Virus record (IMG/VR): IMGVR_UViG_3300045988_089718
Location: 1-64,000 of that record
Length of the DNA stretch: 64,000 nucleotides
Direction: 5' to 3' (one strand)
Origin: a virus
Positions 1-64,000 of this stretch are shown here, piece after piece. The position numbers were made by a program, and so were the translations under genes. Positions within the stretch are counted from its first letter, which is position 1, and the number at the start of each line of letters is the position of its first letter. Under the pieces are notes generated by a model that made no database searches, had not been told where the DNA came from, and saw only the letters and a list, made by a program, of their open reading frames with translations.

Positions 1-20
1 AAGTAATAATTCCATATAAT

Positions 21-320
21 ATGTTAACGGGTCGATCAAGTCTCTTGCAGGTACATCAATTGTATCTGCGAGAGATAAAAACTAAGGAACATTTACATTG
101 GCGTAAACAAATCATTAAGACACATAACATGGCTGTAGCCAATCGTAAATCTCACAATTATGCAGTTCAACTTTTAGTAAAAGCTACTAATATTCCATAT
201 TCAGCAGAATTAGCTAAATTAATGAACCTCATAATTAATGAGAAATTTACTCAACGAAAAATGTATTATGTGTCTATTGACACTGCGGTATTTAAACTTG
301 TAAACAATTTAACGATTTAA
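21..320 (+). CDS. hypothetical protein (99 aa)
   Basis: + strand ORF at window start in co-directional compact array; no motif recognised. Confidence 0.45.
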   Translation: MLTGRSSLLQVHQLYLREIKTKEHLHWRKQIIKTHNMAVANRKSHNYAVQLLVKATNIPYSAELAKLMNLIINEKFTQRKMYYVSIDTAVFKLVNNLTI

Positions 321-325
321 ATAAA

Positions 326-790
326 ATGAAAAGATACAACATTTGGAATAAAATTTTCCACAAAAAGGAATTAAACAAGAATGTTGCAAATTATAGACTT
401 CAACAAGGTCTTGTTAATAGCTATGAGTGTTGGCTTACTAAAATTGGTAATGCTAATACTCTAGCTGAGTGTATGATACTCCATAAGCGTATTTGGCGTA
501 AAGGTTTTCGTAATGCTAATCTTGGTCCAGATAAACATGGAATGTTTAGAACTAAAGATATAAATCTTATGACAATAAATGAGGTTTATATTGGAGGAAT
601 CTATGGTCTTAATACTCAAACTATTGCACAATGGGAAGATTCTAAAGAAGAACCATATGATTCTGAACAAACTTGTTACGACATTATTCTGTGCTCTTAT
701 AAAAGATTGTTAAAATCTAATATTATAGCACTTGCAGATAATGCTAAGTTATTAGTAGCAGAATACCAACAAAATAATTATAAGTTATGA
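326..790 (+). CDS. hypothetical protein (154 aa)
   Basis: ORF packed 5 nt after previous stop; no motif recognised. Confidence 0.55.
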   Translation: MKRYNIWNKIFHKKELNKNVANYRLQQGLVNSYECWLTKIGNANTLAECMILHKRIWRKGFRNANLGPDKHGMFRTKDINLMTINEVYIGGIYGLNTQTIAQWEDSKEEPYDSEQTCYDIILCSYKRLLKSNIIALADNAKLLVAEYQQNNYKL

Positions 791-872
791 TATTCTTACA
801 AAATATTATTTTAATTATCCTACTTGTAGGAATAGGTAAAATAGCATATGACGATTTTAAAGAAATGAACTC

Positions 873-1334
873 ATGATAAATGTACAACAAAATGAAAAGG
901 AATATGTAATTTCTATGACTATTCCTTTTAAAAAGGTTGCATTCTCTGAAACTCCATACAAAAGAGATTTCAAGAAGTTTGCAGAAGAAGTATTTGCAGC
1001 TTATACTATAGTTATAGTACAAGCTATAGAAGCTAGAATGAAGGCTTGTGCAAGTAATCTTATTAAGCATTCAGATAGTATAAAGTATTGTGATGATAAA
1101 TACATTACATATATTAGAAAGTCTGGAGGAGAACATACATTCTCTCTTAACGCTTACGAGACTATGCGAAGATTAGTTAAAAAAGTTCAACAATGTAAAT
1201 TGGGTGAATTAACTAAATTTGATCTTAGACAGATTGCTAAAGCTCTTAATTGGGTAGAAAATAAAGTAGATATCAAGGAATATACATTCCAGGACTTAAT
1301 TGATGTAATCGATGAATACAGAGAACTTAAATAA
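873..1334 (+). CDS. hypothetical protein (153 aa)
   Basis: ORF in compact array; no motif recognised. Confidence 0.55.
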   Translation: MINVQQNEKEYVISMTIPFKKVAFSETPYKRDFKKFAEEVFAAYTIVIVQAIEARMKACASNLIKHSDSIKYCDDKYITYIRKSGGEHTFSLNAYETMRRLVKKVQQCKLGELTKFDLRQIAKALNWVENKVDIKEYTFQDLIDVIDEYRELK

Positions 1335-1689
1335 AAAAATTGTATCAGGTTATGAGAGTCTTGCAGGTAAGGCTCTCACAATAGACCATAAGGCTAGAAC
1401 TTATCACATTGGTGATAGAGTAGTCCCATTTTCTTCTTGTGTTATAAAGGAAGGTAATATTTATTACTTAACACCTATGTGTAAAGTTCTTGTTGATATG
1501 GGTTTTAAAGGCGTAACGGATTTTACCTCTAACACAGTTACTTGTACTAGTTTTGATAATTGTAATCGCAATATTAAAACTGTAGGACTTGTAACTATTG
1601 ATGATAGAGTCTTTATTAAGATTACTCTTAATTCAGAGTTTCCAATATATGAAGGTTACGAATCTTTAAGAAATGTAATTTATGAATAA
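1312..1689 (+). CDS. hypothetical protein (125 aa)
   Basis: ORF overlapping previous stop by 23 nt (phage-like coupling). Confidence 0.5.
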   Translation: MNTENLNKKIVSGYESLAGKALTIDHKARTYHIGDRVVPFSSCVIKEGNIYYLTPMCKVLVDMGFKGVTDFTSNTVTCTSFDNCNRNIKTVGLVTIDDRVFIKITLNSEFPIYEGYESLRNVIYE

Positions 1690-1838
1690 AAAAAGAATGA
1701 AGATAATCTCTGCACTCTAGTACTATAGAGTATAATAAATAGTTGACATCTTGGAAAGAAAATTGGTTAATCATAAGACAAGACTTATGTATTTTTAAAA
1801 TAAAATAGTTATCAACAATATACAGTTTAGATCATTTC

Positions 1839-1868
1839 GCTAGTTCGGTCTGTGATAGATAGGGCTAG
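1839..1868 (+). repeat. Hairpin family member A1: stem CTAG/CTAG around conserved loop TTCGGTCTGTGATAGATAGG
   Basis: Read directly; conserved 20-nt loop shared with copies at 1924, 6134, 6317, 7968 and 8162, with a different stem at each copy. Confidence 0.7.
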
Positions 1869-1923
1869 TTACTTTAGTAATCTATTATGTCCATAAGCAC
1901 AATAGATTACAAAGACAAATATT

Positions 1924-1952
1924 AGAGTTCGGTCTGTGATAGATAGGACTCT
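1924..1952 (+). repeat. Hairpin family member A2: stem AGAG/CTCT around loop TTCGGTCTGTGATAGATAGGA
   Basis: Same loop as A1 with a different, covarying stem. Confidence 0.7.
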
Positions 1953-2044
1953 AGTGTAAACCTACATCCTGCATATCCAAAGTAGCAGACTCTTAACGAG
2001 AAAGGTGATGGCACATTATTAATAATTAAATAGTTTAAACAAAA

Positions 2045-2215
2045 ATGGAGACAAAAGACATTATTAAGATTACAGCATTAGTCTTTTCTAAAAAGAAAAC
2101 TATTGCACAAGTTTGCCGAGAGTACAAAGCTATTCATGGTAAAGAACTTCCAATTAAAAGTGACTTAGAAACATTACAGGCACAATTATCTTTGGGAGGA
2201 ATTTTTCAATGGTAA
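2045..2215 (+). CDS. small hypothetical protein (56 aa)
   Basis: ATG ORF (METKDIIKITALVF...) directly upstream of and overlapping the 2209 gene; below the ORF-track size cutoff. Confidence 0.35.
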   Translation: METKDIIKITALVFSKKKTIAQVCREYKAIHGKELPIKSDLETLQAQLSLGGIFQW

Positions 2216-2568
2216 CGATGAATCATAACACCTTGGGAGAATTAGTAATAATGCTCTCAGCACAGATTGATGCTGAGTACAATGTTTCTAAGACTACACA
2301 TTCTAACTATGCTAATGCTTTTAATAAGAAATATCAATATCTTAATAATACATTAAGAATTATTTCTGGAGAAAGTGTAAAAGGAGGAACATTTGCATTA
2401 TATACTAGAAATCCTTTACTAGTGTTATCAGGACTAATTATGGATAAGTACAAGAAAATATTATTTACAGATATAAAAGGTAATACTTTTGTTGTAAATA
2501 ATGTTAAATGGCTTTACCAATATATGAGTTCTAAAAACATTAATACAGAACCAAGAATATATGGATAA
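2209..2568 (+). CDS. hypothetical protein (119 aa)
   Basis: ORF in array. Confidence 0.5.
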   Translation: MVTMNHNTLGELVIMLSAQIDAEYNVSKTTHSNYANAFNKKYQYLNNTLRIISGESVKGGTFALYTRNPLLVLSGLIMDKYKKILFTDIKGNTFVVNNVKWLYQYMSSKNINTEPRIYG

Positions 2569-2959
2569 AGGTTTGCTGGGAATTGTTATACTTGCTTTTA
2601 TTTTATGTGTGATTTGGACTATTGCCGATCATAATAAAGTAATGAAACAAGTAAAACTTGATCAACTAAGAGACATAAAAAGCAATATAAATAATGCTTT
2701 AAGTCTCTACGACTGTTTGTATATACATATTAATATGTATAGTAAAGGATTTACTGGGAGTAAATCTTTGGCATCTGATGGAATAGTATTTCTGTTAGAT
2801 AACTTATCATCTAAAACTGTAATGTTCAAAGAGGGAACTTTAGAATATATCGAAGGTCATTATGAAGCTGATTCTGAAACTTATAAAACAGCATTAGCTA
2901 TATATAAATCTAGATTAAATTCTGAAGTTGATCTTGAACTAGATAGATATAACTATTAA
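2561..2959 (+). CDS. hypothetical membrane-anchored protein (132 aa)
   Basis: N-terminal hydrophobic segment LLGIVILAFILCVIWTIA; overlaps previous gene by 8 nt. Confidence 0.5.
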   Translation: MDKGLLGIVILAFILCVIWTIADHNKVMKQVKLDQLRDIKSNINNALSLYDCLYIHINMYSKGFTGSKSLASDGIVFLLDNLSSKTVMFKEGTLEYIEGHYEADSETYKTALAIYKSRLNSEVDLELDRYNY

Positions 2960-2970
2960 TTTTAAAAATT

Positions 2971-3366
2971 ATGGAATTATTATTTAATGTTAAACAGAAA
3001 AATGTTGTGGCTAAGATTAAGGAAGACTACTTCTTTCTTAGCAAGAAACCAAAGAAACTAGAGTTTGCTGATGAAAAGCATAAAACTCTAGTCTTAAAAC
3101 ATTTTAAGACTCTGAAACCAACTATTGAGGAGCATTCAGTTATTGATGAATCATTAACTGTAGATGAGTGGAAAGATTTTCCAGTATGGTTAGAAAATGA
3201 ATCTAATGGTGCTGAAGGGAATCTTGAGATTACTAAATTTGCTTATGGTAATATTAAACTGTATGTAAATGGGGGATGTCTTTGTGGCAATGTTCCAGAA
3301 TATGCTTTAAAAGGCATCATCGAGTTATTCAAACAATCTAAAACGAAAGAAAATGCAGACAATTAA
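2971..3366 (+). CDS. hypothetical protein (131 aa)
   Basis: ORF in array. Confidence 0.5.
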   Translation: MELLFNVKQKNVVAKIKEDYFFLSKKPKKLEFADEKHKTLVLKHFKTLKPTIEEHSVIDESLTVDEWKDFPVWLENESNGAEGNLEITKFAYGNIKLYVNGGCLCGNVPEYALKGIIELFKQSKTKENADN

Positions 3367-3868
3367 GAAAGTAAAGTACAACATTGAGAGAGTTGGTAAC
3401 AGTACATTTTGTACTATGTCTTGTGATCTGGAATATATAATGGGTCACTTAGAAGGAGCTAATGTAAAGGTTTCAGAAGCTGACACTTCTGTACTTTTTA
3501 AAATTGCGAATTCTAAAGAGAGAAAGATTTTTATTAAGAATCTTATTCCTTGGGGACTTACTGTTGATAATTCTACTATTACAATCGTTGCTAAAATTAC
3601 TTTAAGTAAAAATGACAAGGACGACCAGGCAGTAGCTAATCAAATTGTAAGAGACAAAGCTATGCACACTATGTGTAAAGTTATTGCAAATGCTCTGCAT
3701 CAAGCTTTAGAATCTACTTATAATAGAGTAGCTAAAGTAAACAATATTATTGATAAGTTGGATCATATTGCTTACTATTCAAAATATAGTGAGAGTGACA
3801 CAACTTGTGATCTTGGGGATTGTTCAGATCCAGGAGATGATGATGTAGATGTTACAGACGTACTATAA
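3353..3868 (+). CDS. hypothetical protein with acidic C-terminus (171 aa)
   Basis: ORF; C-terminal DPGDDDVDVTDVL. Confidence 0.5.
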   Translation: MQTIKKVKYNIERVGNSTFCTMSCDLEYIMGHLEGANVKVSEADTSVLFKIANSKERKIFIKNLIPWGLTVDNSTITIVAKITLSKNDKDDQAVANQIVRDKAMHTMCKVIANALHQALESTYNRVAKVNNIIDKLDHIAYYSKYSESDTTCDLGDCSDPGDDDVDVTDVL

Positions 3869-3983
3869 AACTGTCTTTGTATTGTATTAAAGTTTAAAAT
3901 TTGTAAAATATAACGATTTAAACTATAAAATTTGAAATTAACAAATTTTTACTTTTACAATGGATATTTGAAACTATAGTAGA

Positions 3984-4247
3984 GTGTTGTTGAGAAACAA
4001 TGCTCTATATACTATTAACTTTATAAAAATTATAATTATGAAAGTTTTAAGAAAGATATATAATGTTATTAACAATAGCATTCAGTCTCGTGTAGTCAAT
4101 TCTAAAGAAGAGGCTAACAAATACATTATTTCGCTCAATAGAACTTTAGAAAATAAAGTATCTCTTGAGACAGTAAATAATAAACAGATAGAAGCCATTA
4201 AAATTAATGGTAAATGGTGTATATCTGAAACTGAAATAATAGAGTAA
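3984..4247 (+). CDS. hypothetical protein (87 aa)
   Basis: ORF before the tRNA cluster. Confidence 0.4.
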   Translation: MLLRNNALYTINFIKIIIMKVLRKIYNVINNSIQSRVVNSKEEANKYIISLNRTLENKVSLETVNNKQIEAIKINGKWCISETEIIE

Positions 4248-4273
4248 TTCTGTAAAGTTCATATATATTGTTG

Positions 4274-4296
4274 GCAACTAGCAGACAATTAGTTGC
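4274..4296 (+). repeat. Perfect palindrome GCAACTA-GCAGACAAT-TAGTTGC immediately upstream of tRNA-Arg; copy 1 of 2
   Basis: About 30 nt block ATATTGTTGGCAACTAGCAGAnAATTAGTTGC repeated at 7581-7613, both times directly 5' of a tRNA. Confidence 0.6.
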
Positions 4297-4300
4297 ACTT

Positions 4301-4373
4301 GGTCCTGTAGCTCAGTGTATAGAGCAGGAATCTTCTAAATTCCGGGTCGTGAGTTAGATTCTCGCCAGGACCA
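4301..4373 (+). tRNA. tRNA-Arg (anticodon TCT)
   Basis: Cloverleaf folded by hand: acceptor GGTCCTG/CAGGACC, D arm TAGCTCAGTGTATAGAGC, anticodon stem GGAAT/ATTCC with loop CTTCTAA, T loop GTTAGATTC. Confidence 0.85.
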
Positions 4374-4378
4374 CATAT

Positions 4379-4459
4379 ACGGAGTTCGCTTAATGGTTAG
4401 GGCACCTCACTTCCACAATTCATAGAGAGGGTATATTGGTTCGAATCCTTTACTCCGTA
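4379..4459 (+). tRNA. tRNA-like gene, non-canonical (about 18-nt loop in the anticodon region)
   Basis: Acceptor ACGGAGT/ACTCCGT pairs perfectly; D arm GCTT-AATGGTTA-GGGC; T loop TTCGAAT. The only stem in the anticodon region is CCTC/GAGG enclosing 18 nt. Architecture shared with 4890-4970. Confidence 0.5.
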
Positions 4460-4889: not shown

Positions 4890-4970
4890 ACGGTAGTAGC
4901 TCAGTGGTTAGAACATCTCTTTATATAGGTCATTTCGAGATGGTCATTGGTTCGAATCCTTTCTACCGTA
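4890..4970 (+). tRNA. tRNA-like gene, non-canonical (about 17-nt loop in the anticodon region), paralog of 4379-4459
   Basis: Acceptor ACGGTAG/CTACCGT pairs perfectly; D arm GCTC-AGTGGTTA-GAAC; stem ATCTC/GAGAT encloses 17 nt; T arm ATTGG-TTCGAAT-CCTTT. Confidence 0.5.
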
Positions 4971-5214
4971 CAAATTCAATTTGATAGAGATGGAGGTGAG
5001 ATCTTCAATTATTAGATAGCTTGGCTAACTATCAATAGTTTCGTTTAAAATGCTCATTTATGTAGAATTTCTACAATCACCAGCCATGATTTGAGAAGAC
5101 CCTATCATTTTAATAGAATTTGATATATTGTTAATGTGTATAATAATCCTGACTAATAAATCTATTAGTATGGGTAGGTGTTACCACTATTCTCCTTACA
5201 GAAATGTGGGCTAT

Positions 5215-5287
5215 GGAGATATAGCTTAGAAGGTCAGAGCGCGGGACTGAAAATCCCGAGATTGTGGTTCGATTCCACGTGTCTCCA
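5215..5287 (+). tRNA. tRNA-Phe (anticodon GAA)
   Basis: Acceptor GGAGATA/TGTCTCC; anticodon stem CGGGA/TCCCG with loop CTGAAAA; T loop TTCGATT. Confidence 0.85.
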
Positions 5288-5291
5288 CTAT

Positions 5292-5381
5292 GTACGGATG
5301 CCTGAGTGGTCGAAAGGGTAGGTCTCCAAAACCTACAGAGACGAAAGTTGAACAACGTAGGTCCGAATCCTACTCCGTATG
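5292..5381 (+). tRNA. Type II (long variable arm) tRNA with apparent anticodon CCA
   Basis: Acceptor GTACGGA/TCCGTAT; 3-bp D stem; anticodon stem TAGGT/ACCTA with loop CTCCAAA; about 22-nt variable arm; T arm GTAGG-TCCGAAT-CCTAC (C at position 55). Confidence 0.6.
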
Positions 5382-5404
5382 CAAATAAATCAAATAAATA
5401 AAAT

Positions 5405-6019
5405 ATGGTAAATTGGGATAATGAAATTGAAAAGCTAAAAGACTATGTATTTACATAGAAACTTTCTTATGAAGAAATTGGTAGAATTTATAATTGTACT
5501 GGTGGCAACATAAAGAAAGTAATGCAGAGAAGAGGTATAGAATTACCTATTCGATCTAAAAATGCAGGAAAAGAACCTATTAATAAAGGTACTGGCAAAA
5601 AATGTTATTGTTTAAACTGTGGTAAAGATATTACAGATGCCAGAAATACTACCCATAAATATTGTTCTAATAAATGTCAACGTGAATATGAGTATAAACA
5701 ATGGGTTCAACAATATAAAGAAGATAACTCTATAGCTAAATCTACTAAATGGGGTTAGATACCTGGTCATTTAAGACATTATATATTTGATAAATTTGAT
5801 AACAAGTGTTGTATATGTGGTTGGTCAAAAATAAATCCCTACACAAATACAATTCCTTTAGAAATTGATCATATAGATGGAAATTCAGAAAATAACTCAG
5901 AAGATAACTTAAGATTAATATGTCCTAACTGTCATTCTCTAACCTCTACTTATAGAGGAGCTAATAGAGGTCAAGGAAGAAATATTACTTGGATTATTAA
6001 AGATAAATCTGCCCTCTAA
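5405..6019 (+). CDS. HNH homing-endonuclease-like protein; reading frame contains two in-frame TAG codons (5456-5458 and 5756-5758); either TAG-recoded or a pseudogene
   Basis: Single frame from ATG 5405: MVNWDNEIEKLKDYVFT-TAG-KLSYEEIGRIYNCTGGNIKKVMQRRGIELP...KSTKWG-TAG-IPGHLRHYIFDKFDNKCCICGWSKINP...EIDHIDGNSENNSEDNLRLICPNCH. The classic HNH motif (CxxC...HID..N...N...CxxCH) lies entirely downstream of the second TAG. Confidence 0.6.
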
Positions 6020-6162: not shown

Positions 6163-6167
6163 TACTT

Positions 6168-6240
6168 GGCACTATCGTCTACCTGGTTAGGACGCCACTC
6201 TTTCAAGGTGGAAAAACGATTTCGAGCATCGTTAGTGCTA
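6168..6240 (+). tRNA. tRNA-Glu (anticodon TTC)
   Basis: Acceptor GGCACTA/TAGTGCT; anticodon stem CCACT/GGTGG with loop CTTTCAA. Confidence 0.8.
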
Positions 6241-6316
6241 CCCTTTAAATAAAACTAATACGATTAATGTTTAAGATATAAAGTCAGCGGACTTTATAAC
6301 GTTAAAGAGTTGTTAG

Positions 6317-6442: not shown

Positions 6443-6513
6443 TGGGTTATGGTGTAATGGTAGCACTACAGATTTTGGTTCTGTCAGCTCCAGTTCGAAT
6501 CTGGGTAGCCCAA
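6443..6513 (+). tRNA. tRNA-Gln (anticodon TTG)
   Basis: Acceptor TGGGTTA/TAGCCCA; D arm GTGT-AATGGTA-GCAC; anticodon stem ACAGA/TCTGT with loop TTTTGGT; T arm TCCAG-TTCGAAT-CTGGG. Confidence 0.75.
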
Positions 6514-6520
6514 CAACTTA

Positions 6521-6598
6521 CAGGTGACTTACGGTGTGGGAACCGTTATCTATTAAAGATATATAGCCCATGGGCATTAGCCTAAGGAGTTCGAATCT
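6521..6598 (+). tRNA. tRNA-like fragment (T arm GGAG-TTCGAAT-CTCT and D-arm-like ACGG-TGTGGGAA-CCGT; no pairing acceptor found)
   Basis: tRNA-like local elements but no consistent cloverleaf by hand; needs tRNAscan/Infernal. Confidence 0.25.
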
Positions 6599-6796
6599 CT
6601 AAGCCTGACAATTTTAATAGGTACTAAACAACTCTCAGTAACTCTATTAAATAGCGTAATTACCTTAAAATTAATCATTTGAGTTAAAAAGAGAAAGAAC
6701 GTTAGATAGCTGAGGACAATGGAATAGTTTAAATATAACCAGTGAAAATCGCCTATTATTTAAATAGATTATTAACACATTAATTATAGATAAATT

Positions 6797-15843: not shown

Positions 15844-16068
15844 ATGGAAGAGGACAATGTAGGGGTAACTTCATTAGATTTAGTAGTTGGAAAACTTCTG
15901 GCTAGATGTGCAGAAAAACTTAATGAAGAAGCTTATATCTATAAAGATTATGATAGTATTCCACAATTAAAGCTTGTTGATAATCCTCCTAGTGGCAAGG
16001 AAAGACGTAGAACTAGAAGAATGCTGGAACTTAGAAAAAGAAAGGGCAGATTGGGTATTTGTAGATGA
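15844..16068 (+). CDS. hypothetical protein (74 aa)
   Basis: ORF. Confidence 0.4.
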   Translation: MEEDNVGVTSLDLVVGKLLARCAEKLNEEAYIYKDYDSIPQLKLVDNPPSGKERRRTRRMLELRKRKGRLGICR

Positions 16069-20655: not shown

Positions 20656-20794
20656 GCATGAATAACAATGACTTAGGAATCTTAGAAACCATTACTCACT
20701 CAATCCTCAAAGATGTAAAAAGTTTAGATCCTGATATATCTCAACTAGTAGATAAATACTTTTGGTATTTAGTATAAAACTTAAAAAGAATAAT

Positions 20795-21094
20795 ATGATA
20801 TTTTACAGATTTGATGAAATTCCAGAGGATGAATGTTCATCTATATGGAATAATAGTAATGAAGTAATAGGTAAAGAAAAAGGTGTGTCTGTTTATGAAG
20901 CTCATAAAAATATAAATGGAACATACTCTCCCGTTCTTCCATTTCCAACAAATGAAAAAGCATTTAATGGTTTTATATATCATGTAGCATACTTTACTGG
21001 CAATAAATATCTAGTAACCGGTGATTTGTTAGATGAAACCGGTACTGATGGTGAGCCATTAATTAAAAATGTAAAAATATTAAAAAAATTATAG
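20795..21094 (+). CDS. hypothetical protein (99 aa; internal ATG start preferred)
   Basis: The 20762 start in the ORF track overlaps the upstream small ORF; MIFYRFDEIPEDE start at 20795. Confidence 0.45.
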   Translation: MIFYRFDEIPEDECSSIWNNSNEVIGKEKGVSVYEAHKNINGTYSPVLPFPTNEKAFNGFIYHVAYFTGNKYLVTGDLLDETGTDGEPLIKNVKILKKL

Positions 21095-21097
21095 TTT

Positions 21098-21484
21098 ATG
21101 GATATAAAAGATATTAAATTTAAGGCTAAACGTCTTGATACTGGAGAATGGGTAAAGGGGGACTTGGTACATAGTACAAGTTATATTGGTATATGTATAT
21201 ATCATCCAAATAACATATTTCCTGATGTTCCAGTAGTACGCAAGGTTGACCCGGATACAGTTTGTATGTTCACAGGATTAAAAAACAAGGAAGGTAATGA
21301 AATATACGAACATGATTTTATCTCTATATTTAAAGGTAGAGAACTTTGTGAAGTAATCTTTGAAAAAGGATGCTTCCTAGCATTTAATCCTAGAACTCAT
21401 ATGCGTATGCCATTAATAACAGGTATTAATGACTATGCCTGGGAATTGCATGTAGTTGGAAACAAATTCGATAAAAAGAAATAA
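21098..21484 (+). CDS. hypothetical protein (128 aa)
   Basis: ORF. Confidence 0.5.
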   Translation: MDIKDIKFKAKRLDTGEWVKGDLVHSTSYIGICIYHPNNIFPDVPVVRKVDPDTVCMFTGLKNKEGNEIYEHDFISIFKGRELCEVIFEKGCFLAFNPRTHMRMPLITGINDYAWELHVVGNKFDKKK

Positions 21485-24025: not shown

Positions 24026-24355
24026 GGGGATGTTTTGGTTTTGAACTTCGAGGAGATAAGGAACACAGCAAGACAGTTGGAGAGACAACAAAACAATAAT
24101 CGCTAGAGTTATTAATATGACTCCTGCTTATCAGGCTGCTGCCTGAGAAGCCGAGCAGCACTTGCTTAGGAACAGAAAGGTGCACTATTTTCCATTTCTT
24201 TTGTAAGTTCTCTGTATACTTTAGGAACAGAGTGGTGGAAGTTGGCAATGTTAATCTTGTCAACCCTAATAGACAAGGATAGTCTCTAAAACCTATGCTG
24301 TAAGAATGTTTTGATGCAAATCGGAGTGACAGGGGTTCGACTCCCCTCATCTCCA
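24026..24355 (+). ncRNA. ssrA: tmRNA-like gene (about 330 nt)
   Basis: 5' GGGGATG pairs with 3' CATCTCC, giving a tRNA-Ala-like acceptor with G3:U70. 3' T arm GGGG-TTCGACT-CCCC. Locally GC-rich with no ORF (the minus ORF 24003-24356 is spurious). Candidate tag frame GCT AGA GTT ... TAT CAG GCT GCT GCC TGA (ARVINMTPAYQAAA). Confidence 0.6.
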
Positions 24356-24445
24356 CTAGTTCATAGAACTGTTTTTATTATTTGTTTTTAATCCCTGGGC
24401 TATTATTATAGTTCAGGGATTTTTGTTTAATTTTAACTGTTAATT

Positions 24446-28255: not shown

Positions 28256-29152
28256 ATGGAATACTTAGATTTTAGAAATCTTGTTACAGAAGCATGTAAT
28301 AAGATGATTAAAGAGAACAAACATCTCTTTATTCTTGACACCCAAAAAGAGTTTTTATGGATGGCTTATATGGAATCTTTTCCTGAAGGAGCCGTACGTC
28401 AGGAATTTAACTGTGTAAATTGTAAACATTTCATTACTCGCTATGGAGCATTAGTCTCTATAGATGAGAATTATAAAATACATTCTTACTGGGAGGATGT
28501 TCATGCTGAAGGAATGTTTGTTAAAGTTGTAGACAATATGTTACAAGTGCTCAAAAATACTAAAATTAGAAATGCATTTGTAACAGAAGAGACTACAATG
28601 GGTTGTAAATGTAATCAGCAGATACTACCTTCTAAAGAAATAATTACTTGGAACCATTTTTATGCTACTCCTACAAGTAATTTAATTATGGATAAGTCTC
28701 AAACTCCAACATTCCGTGCAGGTGCTAAATCTTCACATGATGTATGGTTAAGAACTTTATCTGAACTTAACTATAATTCTGTACAAACAGTATTAGACTT
28801 AATTGCAGATGATAATCTTTACAGAGGTGATACTTATTTACGTCAAGTAAGTGCCTTAAAGACTGCTTTTGATACGATAGAAAGCAAGCATTTGGAAGGT
28901 TTTGAGGTAGATAATTATGCTTGGGTATCTTCTTGTATACTTCCTGATGCTGTAACACATATACTTAATAGTGCTATAGGTCAGCTTCTTAAAGATATAA
29001 CTGATACTAATAACGTTGAAAGTTCAGTTAAGAAGTTTGAAGCTATGGTTGCTCCTTATAATTATAAGAGACCTAAGGGTATCATCACCAAAACTCAGGT
29101 AGAAAATGCTTATAAAACTGTAGTAGAACTTGGCTATGAAGATTCTTTATAG
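28256..29152 (+). CDS. hypothetical protein (298 aa)
   Basis: Long ORF. Confidence 0.6.
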   Translation: MEYLDFRNLVTEACNKMIKENKHLFILDTQKEFLWMAYMESFPEGAVRQEFNCVNCKHFITRYGALVSIDENYKIHSYWEDVHAEGMFVKVVDNMLQVLKNTKIRNAFVTEETTMGCKCNQQILPSKEIITWNHFYATPTSNLIMDKSQTPTFRAGAKSSHDVWLRTLSELNYNSVQTVLDLIADDNLYRGDTYLRQVSALKTAFDTIESKHLEGFEVDNYAWVSSCILPDAVTHILNSAIGQLLKDITDTNNVESSVKKFEAMVAPYNYKRPKGIITKTQVENAYKTVVELGYEDSL

Positions 29153-29224
29153 CGTCGTCATGCTAAAGTAGAAGATATATCTATTGAAGATGTTATCTTT
29201 GTAAATAGAGAAACTCGTAAGAGA

Positions 29225-30289
29225 ATGTCAGGAGGATTTGATTCTCTTATGAATGAAACTATTAATACTAGTAAAGTTGCTACAGATTTTGAGAAGACTG
29301 CTATCCCAACAACTATGGAAGAGTTCCTTAATAATATTGTTTCTAAGGCTAGTAAGCTTGAATTATTCTTTGACAATAAGTTAAATAATAATTTAGTAAC
29401 TCTTACTGCCCCAGTTAATAAGGAAGCTCCTTCTATGTTTAAGTGGACTAATGGTTTTGCTTGGGCATATAATGGTAATATCTCTGATGCTATTAAGCAG
29501 CGTGTCAAAGAAGTAGGAGGTAAAGTAGACGGCTATATGAGAATCTCTCTTCATTGGTATAATTACGATGATTTGGATTTACATATGGAAAGTCCTTATG
29601 GGCATATTTATTATAATAACAAGCGTAATTTGCTTGATGTGGATATGAATGTCTGTGGAGGTAATCCTTCCGCAGAACGTAGTAATCCTAAGAAATATTC
29701 TCGTAACGCTGTAGAAAATATTATTTTCTCAGGAATTCCTGTAGCAGGTACTTATAAAGTATTTGTTAACAACTATAGTAAAGTTGAGAATATTGATTTA
29801 GGATTTGAAGTAGAGGTAGAACTCAATGGAGTTATTCATACTTATACGTATGACAAAGATATCCCTTATAAAAGTAATGTTCCAGTATTAAACTTTACTT
29901 CTAATGGGCGTGAAGTTGTCTTTACTAAGGAATATTTAAATAGTACTACAGCCTCTAAAGAAATTTGGGGAGTAAAGACTCAAAACTTTGTTGAAATATC
30001 TGCTATATGCTTATCTCCAAATTACTGGGGAAATAATAAAGTAGGTGCTAAGCACTATTTCTTTATGCTGAAGGATTGTAAGAATCCAGATGCTGTTCGT
30101 GGATATTTTAATGAGTATCTTAAAGACGAACTCACTAAGAATCATAAAAGAGTATTTGAAGTATTAGCATCTAAAGCTTTAACTCCTTATAATGATAATC
30201 AGATGAGTGGTTTAGGATTTATAGCTACTTCTCGTAACCAAATTATGGTTAGAGTAGATTCAGGTAAAATTTATAAAGTAAACATTTAA
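29225..30289 (+). CDS. hypothetical protein (354 aa)
   Basis: Long ORF. Confidence 0.6.
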   Translation: MSGGFDSLMNETINTSKVATDFEKTAIPTTMEEFLNNIVSKASKLELFFDNKLNNNLVTLTAPVNKEAPSMFKWTNGFAWAYNGNISDAIKQRVKEVGGKVDGYMRISLHWYNYDDLDLHMESPYGHIYYNNKRNLLDVDMNVCGGNPSAERSNPKKYSRNAVENIIFSGIPVAGTYKVFVNNYSKVENIDLGFEVEVELNGVIHTYTYDKDIPYKSNVPVLNFTSNGREVVFTKEYLNSTTASKEIWGVKTQNFVEISAICLSPNYWGNNKVGAKHYFFMLKDCKNPDAVRGYFNEYLKDELTKNHKRVFEVLASKALTPYNDNQMSGLGFIATSRNQIMVRVDSGKIYKVNI

Positions 30290-62767: not shown

Positions 62768-62999
62768 AATACTAGTAATTCCGGATGTACATGGTCGTGG
62801 TTTTTGGAAAGAACCATGCAATAATTGGACAGGTAAAATTATATTCTTAGGAGATTATCATGACCCTTATGGAGAATATGTAGTTGGAGAACCTGATAAA
62901 ACAGAATCTTTAATCAATCTTAAAGAATTAGTTACTTTTGTAGAGAATAGACGTAAAATTTCTGATGTTATATGCCTATTAGGCAATCATAAATTTTAA
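62760..62999 (+). CDS. Ser/Thr-phosphatase-like metallophosphoesterase, 5' exon only (interrupted directly after the GNH motif)
   Basis: VIPDVHG (DxH), IIFLGDYHD (GDxxD), LLGNH, then KF-stop where GNHE and the C-terminal half are expected; followed by intron-like sequence. Confidence 0.55.
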   Translation: MTKILVIPDVHGRGFWKEPCNNWTGKIIFLGDYHDPYGEYVVGEPDKTESLINLKELVTFVENRRKISDVICLLGNHKF

Positions 63000-64000
63000 C
63001 ATAGGTTTCCTTGGAAATCTTTTCTAAAATATGTATACTTAAGTGTTAATAATTAATACTTAAGCTATGCATCAATTTAATCACAATTATTTTAAAACTA
63101 TTGATACAGAAGAAAAAGCTTATATCCTTGGTTTTCTGTATGCTGATGGCTATAACTCTGATAAGCAAGTAGTTATAGCCCAATTAGAACAAGATGTTGA
63201 TATTTTAGAAAAGATAAATAAAGCACTAGATGCAGATAATCAAATAAAAAGAAAATTACAGAGTACAAATAATAAAACTGTATGTCAATTATACTATAGT
63301 AGTATAGATATGTGTGCAGACTTAACTAATCTTGGATGTTTTAGAAATAAATCTTTAGCATGTACTTTTCCAACATTTCTAGATAAATCTCTAATTCGAC
63401 ATTTCATTAGAGGTTATTTTGATGGTGATGGATGTGTTTGGATAGGTAAAAGAAAAATAATGACTGTTAAAGATAAGACGAGACCAAGTGGATTTCGGGA
63501 GCGCATAGTTCAAAATGTTAAATTTACAATAACTGGTAATATGACATTTATTAATAGTTTACAAGATGAGTTAGTACAAATGTTGGGATTTAAGAAAACT
63601 AAACTTAATTTTAGCAAGGCTAAAAATGCTAATAATAGCACTTGTGATAAAGTTTGTACTATGGAGTATTCTGGCAGAAAACAGATGCAATCTTTTTATA
63701 ATTATATGTATGAAGGAGCTTCTATTTGGGGAAATAGAAAAAAATTAAAATTTGAAGAAATTTGTGCGTTTGAAGAGAAATCTTCAAAGGACACCTAGTT
63801 AATTGCTGGAACGCCTGAGATGGTAATCAGCAGCCAAGCCTCTAATATTGAGGAAGGTTCATCGACTATCCCTGAAATGGGAGTAGAATCAAGTGATTCG
63901 AAATGCTAGGCTCTTAACGACACGCAAGTGGGCGAAGATGAAGATATAGTCAGTTCTGTAGTTAAATGAAGCTACAGCGATAAAATTGGGACTAGAGTAA
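63000..64000 (+). mobile_element. Probable group I intron carrying a LAGLIDADG homing endonuclease, inserted in the metallophosphoesterase gene (3' boundary beyond the window)
   Basis: Gene interrupted at a catalytic motif; the intervening ORF is a homing endonuclease; 63799-64000 is non-coding, locally GC-rich and hairpin-rich. Confidence 0.55.
63067..63798 (+). CDS. LAGLIDADG homing endonuclease (two-motif, 243 aa)
   Basis: Motif 1 ILGFLYADGY and motif 2 IRGYFDGDGCVW. Confidence 0.8.
   Translation: MHQFNHNYFKTIDTEEKAYILGFLYADGYNSDKQVVIAQLEQDVDILEKINKALDADNQIKRKLQSTNNKTVCQLYYSSIDMCADLTNLGCFRNKSLACTFPTFLDKSLIRHFIRGYFDGDGCVWIGKRKIMTVKDKTRPSGFRERIVQNVKFTITGNMTFINSLQDELVQMLGFKKTKLNFSKAKNANNSTCDKVCTMEYSGRKQMQSFYNYMYEGASIWGNRKKLKFEEICAFEEKSSKDT

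Follow-up and report, generated by a model that had tools for sequence, protein, structure and literature searches.

Reading of the amber codon TAG as glutamine (genetic code 15) is an already known phenomenon in gut phages, described for Lak phages, crAss-like phages and the gemstone clades (10.1101/2021.08.26.457843; PMC6784885; PMC9523058). According to Borges et al. (10.1101/2021.08.26.457843), code-15 phages combine an early block of standard-code genes with recoded late genes, and TAG suppressors are detected in only 40% of the TAG-recoded genomes. The same study reported, within an early gene of the Agate phages, a recoded homing endonuclease encoded by a group I intron; this selfish nuclease is located in the early standard-code part and contains in-frame recoded stops, which are predicted to postpone its production until the code has switched. 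Free-standing nuclease genes that are present in one phage and absent from a close relative are exemplified by SegB and MobE of phage T4 (PMC2330249, PMC2790892); SegB, a GIY-YIG enzyme, lies inside the phage tRNA gene cluster (PMC2330249), and MobE belongs to the HNH family. Group I introns are found in the anticodon loops of bacterial tRNAs (PMC3984707), and in Patescibacteria an interrupted tRNA escapes standard tRNA finders (PMC13011429).

Here we analyze a 64-kb stretch of viral DNA (hereafter, the window) in which an HNH endonuclease gene with two in-frame TAG codons lies among tRNA genes (Table 1). Along with its relatives, the window shares with the known code-15 phages a low GC content (30%), a human-gut source, the combination of standard-code early and TAG-rich structural blocks, alignment of TAG with glutamine, a phage tRNA(CUA) (found here in relatives), and a large tRNA cluster. 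Unlike in those phages, no release factor 2 was found, and an ORF-bearing insert splits the suppressor gene in several genomes. The first-pass annotation had invoked Lak and crAss-like phages, but this phage belongs to a separate lineage with genomes of about 180-210 kb that has no DNA similarity to Lak or crAss-like phages beyond tRNAs and a single element approximately 160 nt long. The parallel with the Agate nuclease is close, except that the Agate gene is intron encoded and uses TGA in place of TGG (Trp), whereas the gene in the window is a free-standing HNH gene between tRNAs with TAG for Gln. Similarly, the likeness to SegB and MobE extends to genomic location and patchy distribution, but the T4 enzymes are encoded in the standard code and biochemically demonstrated, whereas the protein from the window is known from sequence. 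The insert in the suppressor gene of the relatives resembles bacterial tRNA introns in following a U, ending with G and containing core-like helices, but differs from them in interrupting an amber suppressor of a recoded phage, in carrying a 272-aa HNH ORF and in lacking an Rfam group I match. In our assessment, the window very likely comes from a recoded phage with an intact homing-type HNH gene in its tRNA cluster, the TAG codons of which are decoded by a phage tRNA(CUA).

With TAG read as sense, the HNH gene is a single frame of 204 sense codons on the plus strand. As previously noted from the sequence, this frame is interrupted only by TAG, and direct reading confirmed two TAG codons and no TAA or TGA ahead of the terminal TAA. 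The probability of 204 codons free of TAA and TGA at the composition of the window is about 1e-6, and a protein search with the translated frame retrieved upwards of 2,500 homologues, each approximately 200 aa long, with the best match (E ~1e-127 to 4e-127) covering 100% of the protein; therefore, this is a genuine gene frame rather than a chance one. The encoded protein consists of an HTH-like N-terminal region, a central Cys-rich segment (CxxC...CxxxC) and a C-terminal HNH motif (CCICGW...EIDHIDGN...NLRLICPNCH). Of the two domains proposed at first pass, the HNH motif held up, with a marginal score against Pfam HNH (PF01844, 21.6 bits versus a cut-off of 21.4) and a score under the cut-off for HNH_3 (PF13392, 23.2 versus 24.8 bits), whereas the HTH remains a weak Sigma70_r4-like Pfam match at residues 15-41. 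Among 25 aligned homologues, D155, H156 and N168 are invariant and N175, C176 and H177 nearly so, and the predicted product thus appears to conform to the beta-beta-alpha-metal motif of HNH nucleases. A sequence search of the PDB with this protein gave nothing useful.

Table 1. Features of the HNH locus and its surroundings in the window, and tRNA(CUA) genes in related genomes
Feature	Location	Strand	Remarks
tRNA-Phe	5215-5288	+	precedes the 91-nt tRNA
tRNA, 91 nt, long variable arm, anticodon CCA	5292-5382	+	ARAGORN, Rfam; left flank of the insertion
HNH-carrying segment, ~614 nt	5389-6002	+	absent from near-identical genomes with an empty site
HNH endonuclease gene	5405-6019	+	ATG 5405, TAA 6017-6019; full-length homologues
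In-frame TAG, codon 18 of the HNH gene	5456-5458	+	also TAG in L003, L088, L089
In-frame TAG, codon 118 of the HNH gene	5756-5758	+	TAG in 8 of 17 distinct homologues
tRNA-Glu(UUC)	6167-6243	+	right flank of the HNH gene
tRNA-Gln(UUG)	6443-6514	+	ARAGORN; D-arm, U1:A72 and A73 in common with the tRNA(CUA) of relatives
Second gene with an in-frame TAG	28256-30289	+	TAG 29150-29152, codon 299; 677 aa, PHROG family 1735
Intact tRNA(CUA), 73 nt	L185, 6354-6426	-	ARAGORN
Intact tRNA(CUA)	L187, 5782-5855	-	ARAGORN
Split tRNA(CUA)	L184, 4501-5576	-	search with the intact sequence
Split tRNA(CUA)	L186, 5407-6482	-	search with the intact sequence
Split tRNA(CUA)	L086 (MT835539), 14976-16051	+	search with the intact sequence

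Nearly all genes of the window are on the plus strand; they include NrdD, helicases, exonucleases and nicotinamide phosphoribosyltransferase, together with 13 or more tRNAs and one tmRNA. The fraction of sequence covered by ORFs of at least 100 aa was compared under the standard code, with TAG as sense and with TGA as sense. Within the window itself, reading TAG as sense gave no greater gain in coverage than reading TGA as sense, and the recoding surfaced in two close relatives, MT835492 (121.6 kb; 95% identical to and collinear with window positions 19.8-63 kb) and MT835539 (55 kb; 90% identical over the tRNA region). Coverage rose from 0.51 under the standard code to 0.91 with TAG as sense (0.55 with TGA as sense) in the former and from 0.35 to 0.82 (0.40) in the latter, and long blocks of both contigs went from 0-0.5 to about 1.0. 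Late ORFs in these blocks contain 4 to 128 in-frame TAGs, for example, 46 in the portal gene and 4 in the gene for the major head protein. An IMG/VR contig (L173) links the far ends of MT835492 and MT835539, so that the two records make up an almost complete genome of about 184 kb.

Four other contigs (L184-L187, 44-210 kb) encode a protein identical to the product of the first ORF of the window and are 98-99.5% identical to the window over positions 5-4300 (99.5% for L185); of the relatives, L186, a ZHAN22 scaffold, has on average the highest identity to the window where the two align. Genes located 4-10 kb upstream of the window start in L184-L186 contain 4-48 TAGs and no TAA or TGA. In relatives that are 95-99.5% identical, late-gene blocks that are open only if TAG is sense flank the equivalent of the window on both sides. 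Given these TAG-rich late blocks, the window most probably represents the standard-code early half (replication and nucleotide metabolism) of a TAG-recoded gut phage with a genome of about 180-210 kb. The collection contains an identical copy of the first ORF in 57 blocks, from contigs that reach 210 kb, and the lineage is common in human gut metagenomes. A search for the GGQ motif of release factors revealed no release factor 2 in the window, MT835492 or MT835539, and GlnRS was not found in these three sequences either. L007 and L008 were rejected as genomic relatives, having the HNH gene and tRNAs in common with the window but not the flanking genes; MT835839 and MT836720 encode tRNA(CUA) but show no similarity to this lineage.

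TAA is the commonest stop in the window, as the first-pass annotation had stated, ending 72 of the 113 plus-strand ORFs, compared to 31 for TGA and 10 for TAG. TAG ends about eight ORFs apart from those discussed here, most of them with TAA or TGA 0-13 codons beyond, so TAG is not exclusively a sense codon in the window. Besides the HNH gene, one gene in the window contains an in-frame TAG, with hundreds of further cases in the flanking late blocks of the relatives. This gene comprises two ORFs, 28256-29152 and 29225-30289, which together make up one PHROG-1735 protein: they match profile positions 2-300 and 331-671, respectively, and the fused protein matches positions 2-671 of 673 in one stretch (E = 7.5e-199). 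The orthologue in MT835492 (93% nucleotide identity) has the same length and GAG (Glu) at codon 299. Another candidate for a TAG-joined gene, 20762-21094 plus 21098-21484, was rejected, the second ORF being a complete YopX domain with its own start.

To analyze the TAG codons of the HNH gene, DNA of homologues was collected from Logan, ENA, IMG/VR and JGI, yielding 17 distinct copies; L099 was left out of the alignment, its extracted frame having 30 stops (frameshift or extraction error). Homologues in the protein database show Q at both TAG positions, but standard-code translation of the underlying DNA does not give the listed proteins: these Q residues are TAG codons that the gene caller of the database rendered as Q. 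Three orthologues (L003, L088 and L089; 92-93% amino acid identity to the HNH protein of the window) have TAG at codons 18 and 118, and more distant copies (76-80% identity) at columns 41, 92, 99 and 118 and in the C-terminal tail. Altogether, TAG occurs in frame in 14 alignment columns. TAG alternates with glutamine codons at column 92, where Gln is found in 14 of the 14 sense copies (CAA in 13, CAG in 1) and TAG in the remaining 3, and at column 118, where TAG is joined by CAA in six copies and GTG in two. At codon 18, homologues without TAG carry D, E, N or K. The TAGs are thus conserved and selected as sense codons, and TAG occupies glutamine columns; the amber recoding that had been suspected from the two interruptions is borne out by this conservation, by the exchange with CAA/CAG at Gln positions, by purifying selection downstream (see below) and by the recoded relatives.

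A plausible course of events would be the following. Early in infection, TAG would terminate translation, and the HNH message would yield only a 17-residue peptide. After the phage tRNA(CUA) had been transcribed, if necessary spliced, and aminoacylated (presumably by GlnRS of the host), TAG would be read as Gln, and the full 204-aa nuclease would be produced alongside the TAG-rich late proteins. Because translation would stop after 17 residues before the suppressor becomes available, full-length nuclease would appear only late, after the code switch, and the TAGs may bring a regulatory benefit or may simply be tolerated. The HNH gene would then be another selfish nuclease whose synthesis is tied to the phage code switch.

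The strongest competing explanation, to which we assign somewhat less than an even chance, accepts TAG as a sense codon and attributes its presence in the HNH gene to neutral drift rather than to a timing device. A genome with a suppressor tolerates changes from CAG, GAG or AAG to TAG in any gene that is dispensable or needed late, and the same route of accumulation has been proposed by Borges et al. (10.1101/2021.08.26.457843). Consistent with such drift, TAG accounts for only 2 of the 204 codons here compared to 4-6% in late genes, TAG positions shift between HNH homologues, and the TAG of the PHROG-1735 gene is replaced by a Glu codon in MT835492. On the other hand, the copies sharing TAG at codon 118 come from several lineages, and the retention of both TAGs in the window copy and its three closest orthologues exceeds what transient drift would leave, without being proof of function. 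This alternative alters only the reason for the presence of the TAGs, not the mechanism of their decoding.

For decoding by a dedicated phage tRNA(CUA), a source of this tRNA is needed. The first-pass annotation had pointed to a large cluster with several non-canonical tRNAs; the cluster and its unusual members are real according to ARAGORN and Rfam, but none of these tRNAs has a CUA anticodon. More generally, no tRNA(CUA) was detected in the 64-kb window by ARAGORN, Rfam or a custom scan for a CUA stem-loop with a T-arm and an acceptor stem; the scan, which recovered the L007 controls, also returned nothing in L002, MT835492 and MT835539, and ARAGORN and Rfam found none in the approximately 176 kb of MT835492 plus MT835539. 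The gene was found in genomes nearly identical to the window, intact in two of them and split in three, about 3.6 kb upstream of the equivalent of window position 1 (about 3.5-4.6 kb for the split loci). By analogy with these relatives, the genome from which the window derives would carry the gene at the corresponding site. No further suppressor was found in the genome of about 184 kb represented by MT835492 and MT835539; because the split gene would be the sole suppressor there, we argue that it is functional.

These findings also bear on the possibility that the TAGs are read without any dedicated suppressor, by a near-cognate tRNA such as the tRNA-Gln(UUG) of the cluster or through leaky termination, as the initial absence of tRNA(CUA) from the window and from the ARAGORN and Rfam results for MT835492 and MT835539, along with the low suppressor detection rate in recoded genomes at large (10.1101/2021.08.26.457843), would allow. 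We consider this highly unlikely given the tRNA(CUA) genes of the five relatives, the genes with up to 128 TAGs, which leaky termination could not produce, and the fact that a UUG anticodon would misread TAA, the main terminator, more readily than TAG.

As for the amino acid inserted, the tRNA(CUA) of the relatives and the phage tRNA-Gln(UUG) have in common the D-arm (TATGGTGTAATGG(T)TAGCAC), the U1:A72 pair and A73, and crAss-like phages have tRNAs, annotated as tRNA-Gln, with 92% identity to the related suppressor of L007. Assignment of TAG to an amino acid other than glutamine draws on the D/E/N/K residues of homologues at HNH codon 18 and the Glu of the orthologue at codon 299 of the PHROG-1735 gene, two positions that by themselves do not identify the amino acid, and on the label "Pyl" that ARAGORN gives by default to CTA anticodons. 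Such an assignment is very unlikely considering that Gln predominates among the sense residues of the two TAG columns with the best conservation (all 14 at column 92, 6 of 8 at column 118), that the tRNA features point to tRNA-Gln, and that only TAG-to-Gln has been seen in such phages, with confirmation by proteomics. Thus, the two TAGs of the HNH gene are almost certainly read as glutamine, a reading of in vivo insertion that derives from the sequence comparisons; metaproteomics provides a route to Gln peptides at TAG positions (PMC9523058).

Selection on the HNH gene bears on whether it is intact. The whole-gene dN/dS against orthologues is 0.08-0.12, and in comparisons of the window copy with the three orthologues that have both TAGs (dS 0.34-0.45), the ratio ranges over 0.085-0.113 in codons 19-117 and over 0.053-0.138 in codons 119-204. 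Approximately 21% of the one-step nonsense paths in this family lead to TAG and 79% to TAA or TGA, so under a decay model the occurrence of TAG in all 14 columns with nonsense codons and of TAA or TGA in none has a probability of about 2e-10. The alternative raised by the first-pass annotation, a decaying homing-endonuclease pseudogene in which the TAGs would be plain nonsense mutations that preclude a full-length product, has in its favor that free-standing homing endonuclease genes often decay, that this gene is dispensable (absent from L185 and MT835539), and that the L002 copy lacks 3 codons in frame and includes an assembly gap and the L095 copy has 4 TAGs, but it is the least probable of the readings and is rejected because sequence past a true stop would not keep such constraint, with both TAGs persisting over this divergence, no frameshift, premature TAA or TGA in any of the 17 distinct copies, and TAG alternating with CAA/CAG at an invariant Gln column. 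The HNH gene is an intact mobile nuclease gene.

Mobility is apparent from the comparison of near-identical genomes, among which the HNH-carrying segment is present or absent at one site. L185 is 99.5% and 97.9% identical to the window to the left of the site and then jumps from window position 5388 to 6003; MT835539 lacks window positions 5386-6002, and the segment is missing from L184 as well. Being located between the CCA-anticodon tRNA and tRNA-Glu, the HNH gene lies within the tRNA cluster, and homologues in other phages are also found in tRNA clusters. Taken together, these features suggest a free-standing insertion of the homing-endonuclease type, with homing as its putative activity.

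The split tRNA(CUA) of L184, L186 and MT835539 consists of two exact halves, nucleotides 1-35 and 36-73, with 1,003 nt between them, the break falling between U35 and A36 of the anticodon. Neither ARAGORN nor Rfam detects the split genes. The insert, the boundaries of which are exact, is preceded by U and has G as its last base. It encodes a TAG-free HNH ORF of 272 aa that is 43% identical over 68 aa to the HNH domain of the protein from the window. In the last 172 nt of the insert, candidate P3 (CUCUUU/AAAGAG), P7 (GACUA/UAGUC), P8 and P9 helices were recognized by eye; the insert showed no convincing U.G-containing P1, and the Rfam group I model (RF00028) gave no match to it even at an E-value of 10 or below. 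In L186, the T-stem part of exon 2 has two compensatory changes that set it apart from the other copies. Judging from its boundaries and candidate helices, the insert is probably a group I intron. Whether the very suppressor that decodes these TAGs is itself split, in the closest relatives, by a mobile, HNH-bearing, group I-like insert is a proposition that we regard as evenly balanced. If it is correct, RNA splicing would be an additional step on which the change from the standard code to code 15 depends. ORF-bearing introns would then hide suppressor tRNAs from ARAGORN and Rfam, which could account for part of the approximately 60% of TAG-recoded phage genomes without a detected suppressor. 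A literature search yielded no paper on an amber suppressor tRNA split by an ORF-bearing insert.

For annotation, these results imply that gene calling on the entire contig should treat TAG as Gln, through code 15 or a mixed-code caller. Otherwise, the HNH gene, the 677-aa PHROG-1735 gene and about half of the genome are mis-called as fragments.

The tRNA cluster is highly modular between near-identical genomes and includes several unusual genes. The tRNA that directly precedes the HNH gene has a type II variable arm, as in tRNAs for Leu, Ser and Tyr, yet a CCA anticodon, for the Trp codon, and was rejected as a suppressor on account of this anticodon; it is conserved in L001, MT835539, L088, L184 and L185. 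The tRNA at 4890-4971, also rejected, has no CUA; ARAGORN interprets it as tRNA-Ile(UAU) with a 10-nt insert, the alternative reading being an anticodon loop of 6 nt. The MT835539 orthologue receives the call tRNA-Stop(UUA), and the length of the loop varies across three relatives. The candidate at 4379-4459, detected by Rfam only (40 bits), has an 18-nt anticodon loop without CUA. Both 4890-4971 and 4379-4459 are reminiscent of the introns described as "enigmatic" in Lak phage tRNAs (PMC6784885). The tRNA-Arg(UCU) of the window (4301-4374) has the ordinary 74-nt form, whereas in L002 (8706-8791) and MT835539 (6957-7042) it is 85-86 nt long with a long variable arm. On the 184-kb contig L089, a tRNA at 8900-8973 has a CTA-containing anticodon loop of 6 nt, CACTAA (ARAGORN "Ser|Pyl (ct)"); it may represent a second, non-canonical amber suppressor in this related genome and has no orthologue in the window.

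Downstream of tRNA-Gln(UUG) lies a tRNA-like gene (6515-6612) that is called by neither ARAGORN nor Rfam and, lacking CUA, was likewise rejected as a suppressor. Its acceptor stem and D-arm show compensatory changes relative to Lak (ACGG/CCGT versus ACAG/CTGT), and its T-arm reads GGAG-TTCGAAT-CTCT; an 11-nt deletion in the copies of the window and L002 removes one strand of the "anticodon" stem. The tRNA-like gene separates tRNA-Gln(UUG) from a non-coding element of about 160 nt (6612-6775) that is more than 95% identical to the Lak-A1 and Lak-C1 megaphages and nearly invariant in all relatives, with the adjacent tRNA-Gln visibly more diverged from that of Lak. No ORF, Rfam match or stable fold (z = -0.1 and +1.1) was found in this element.

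Near the right end of the window, an ORF for a LAGLIDADG endonuclease (Pfam; 63067-63798) overlaps a group I intron (63744-63971; RF00028, 71.6 bits). Because the alignment with MT835492 ends at window position 62989, the region 63067-63971 looks like another mobile insertion. The tmRNA of the window (24026-24356) encodes the tag peptide ARVINMTPAYQAAA, and a tmRNA is also present in L007.
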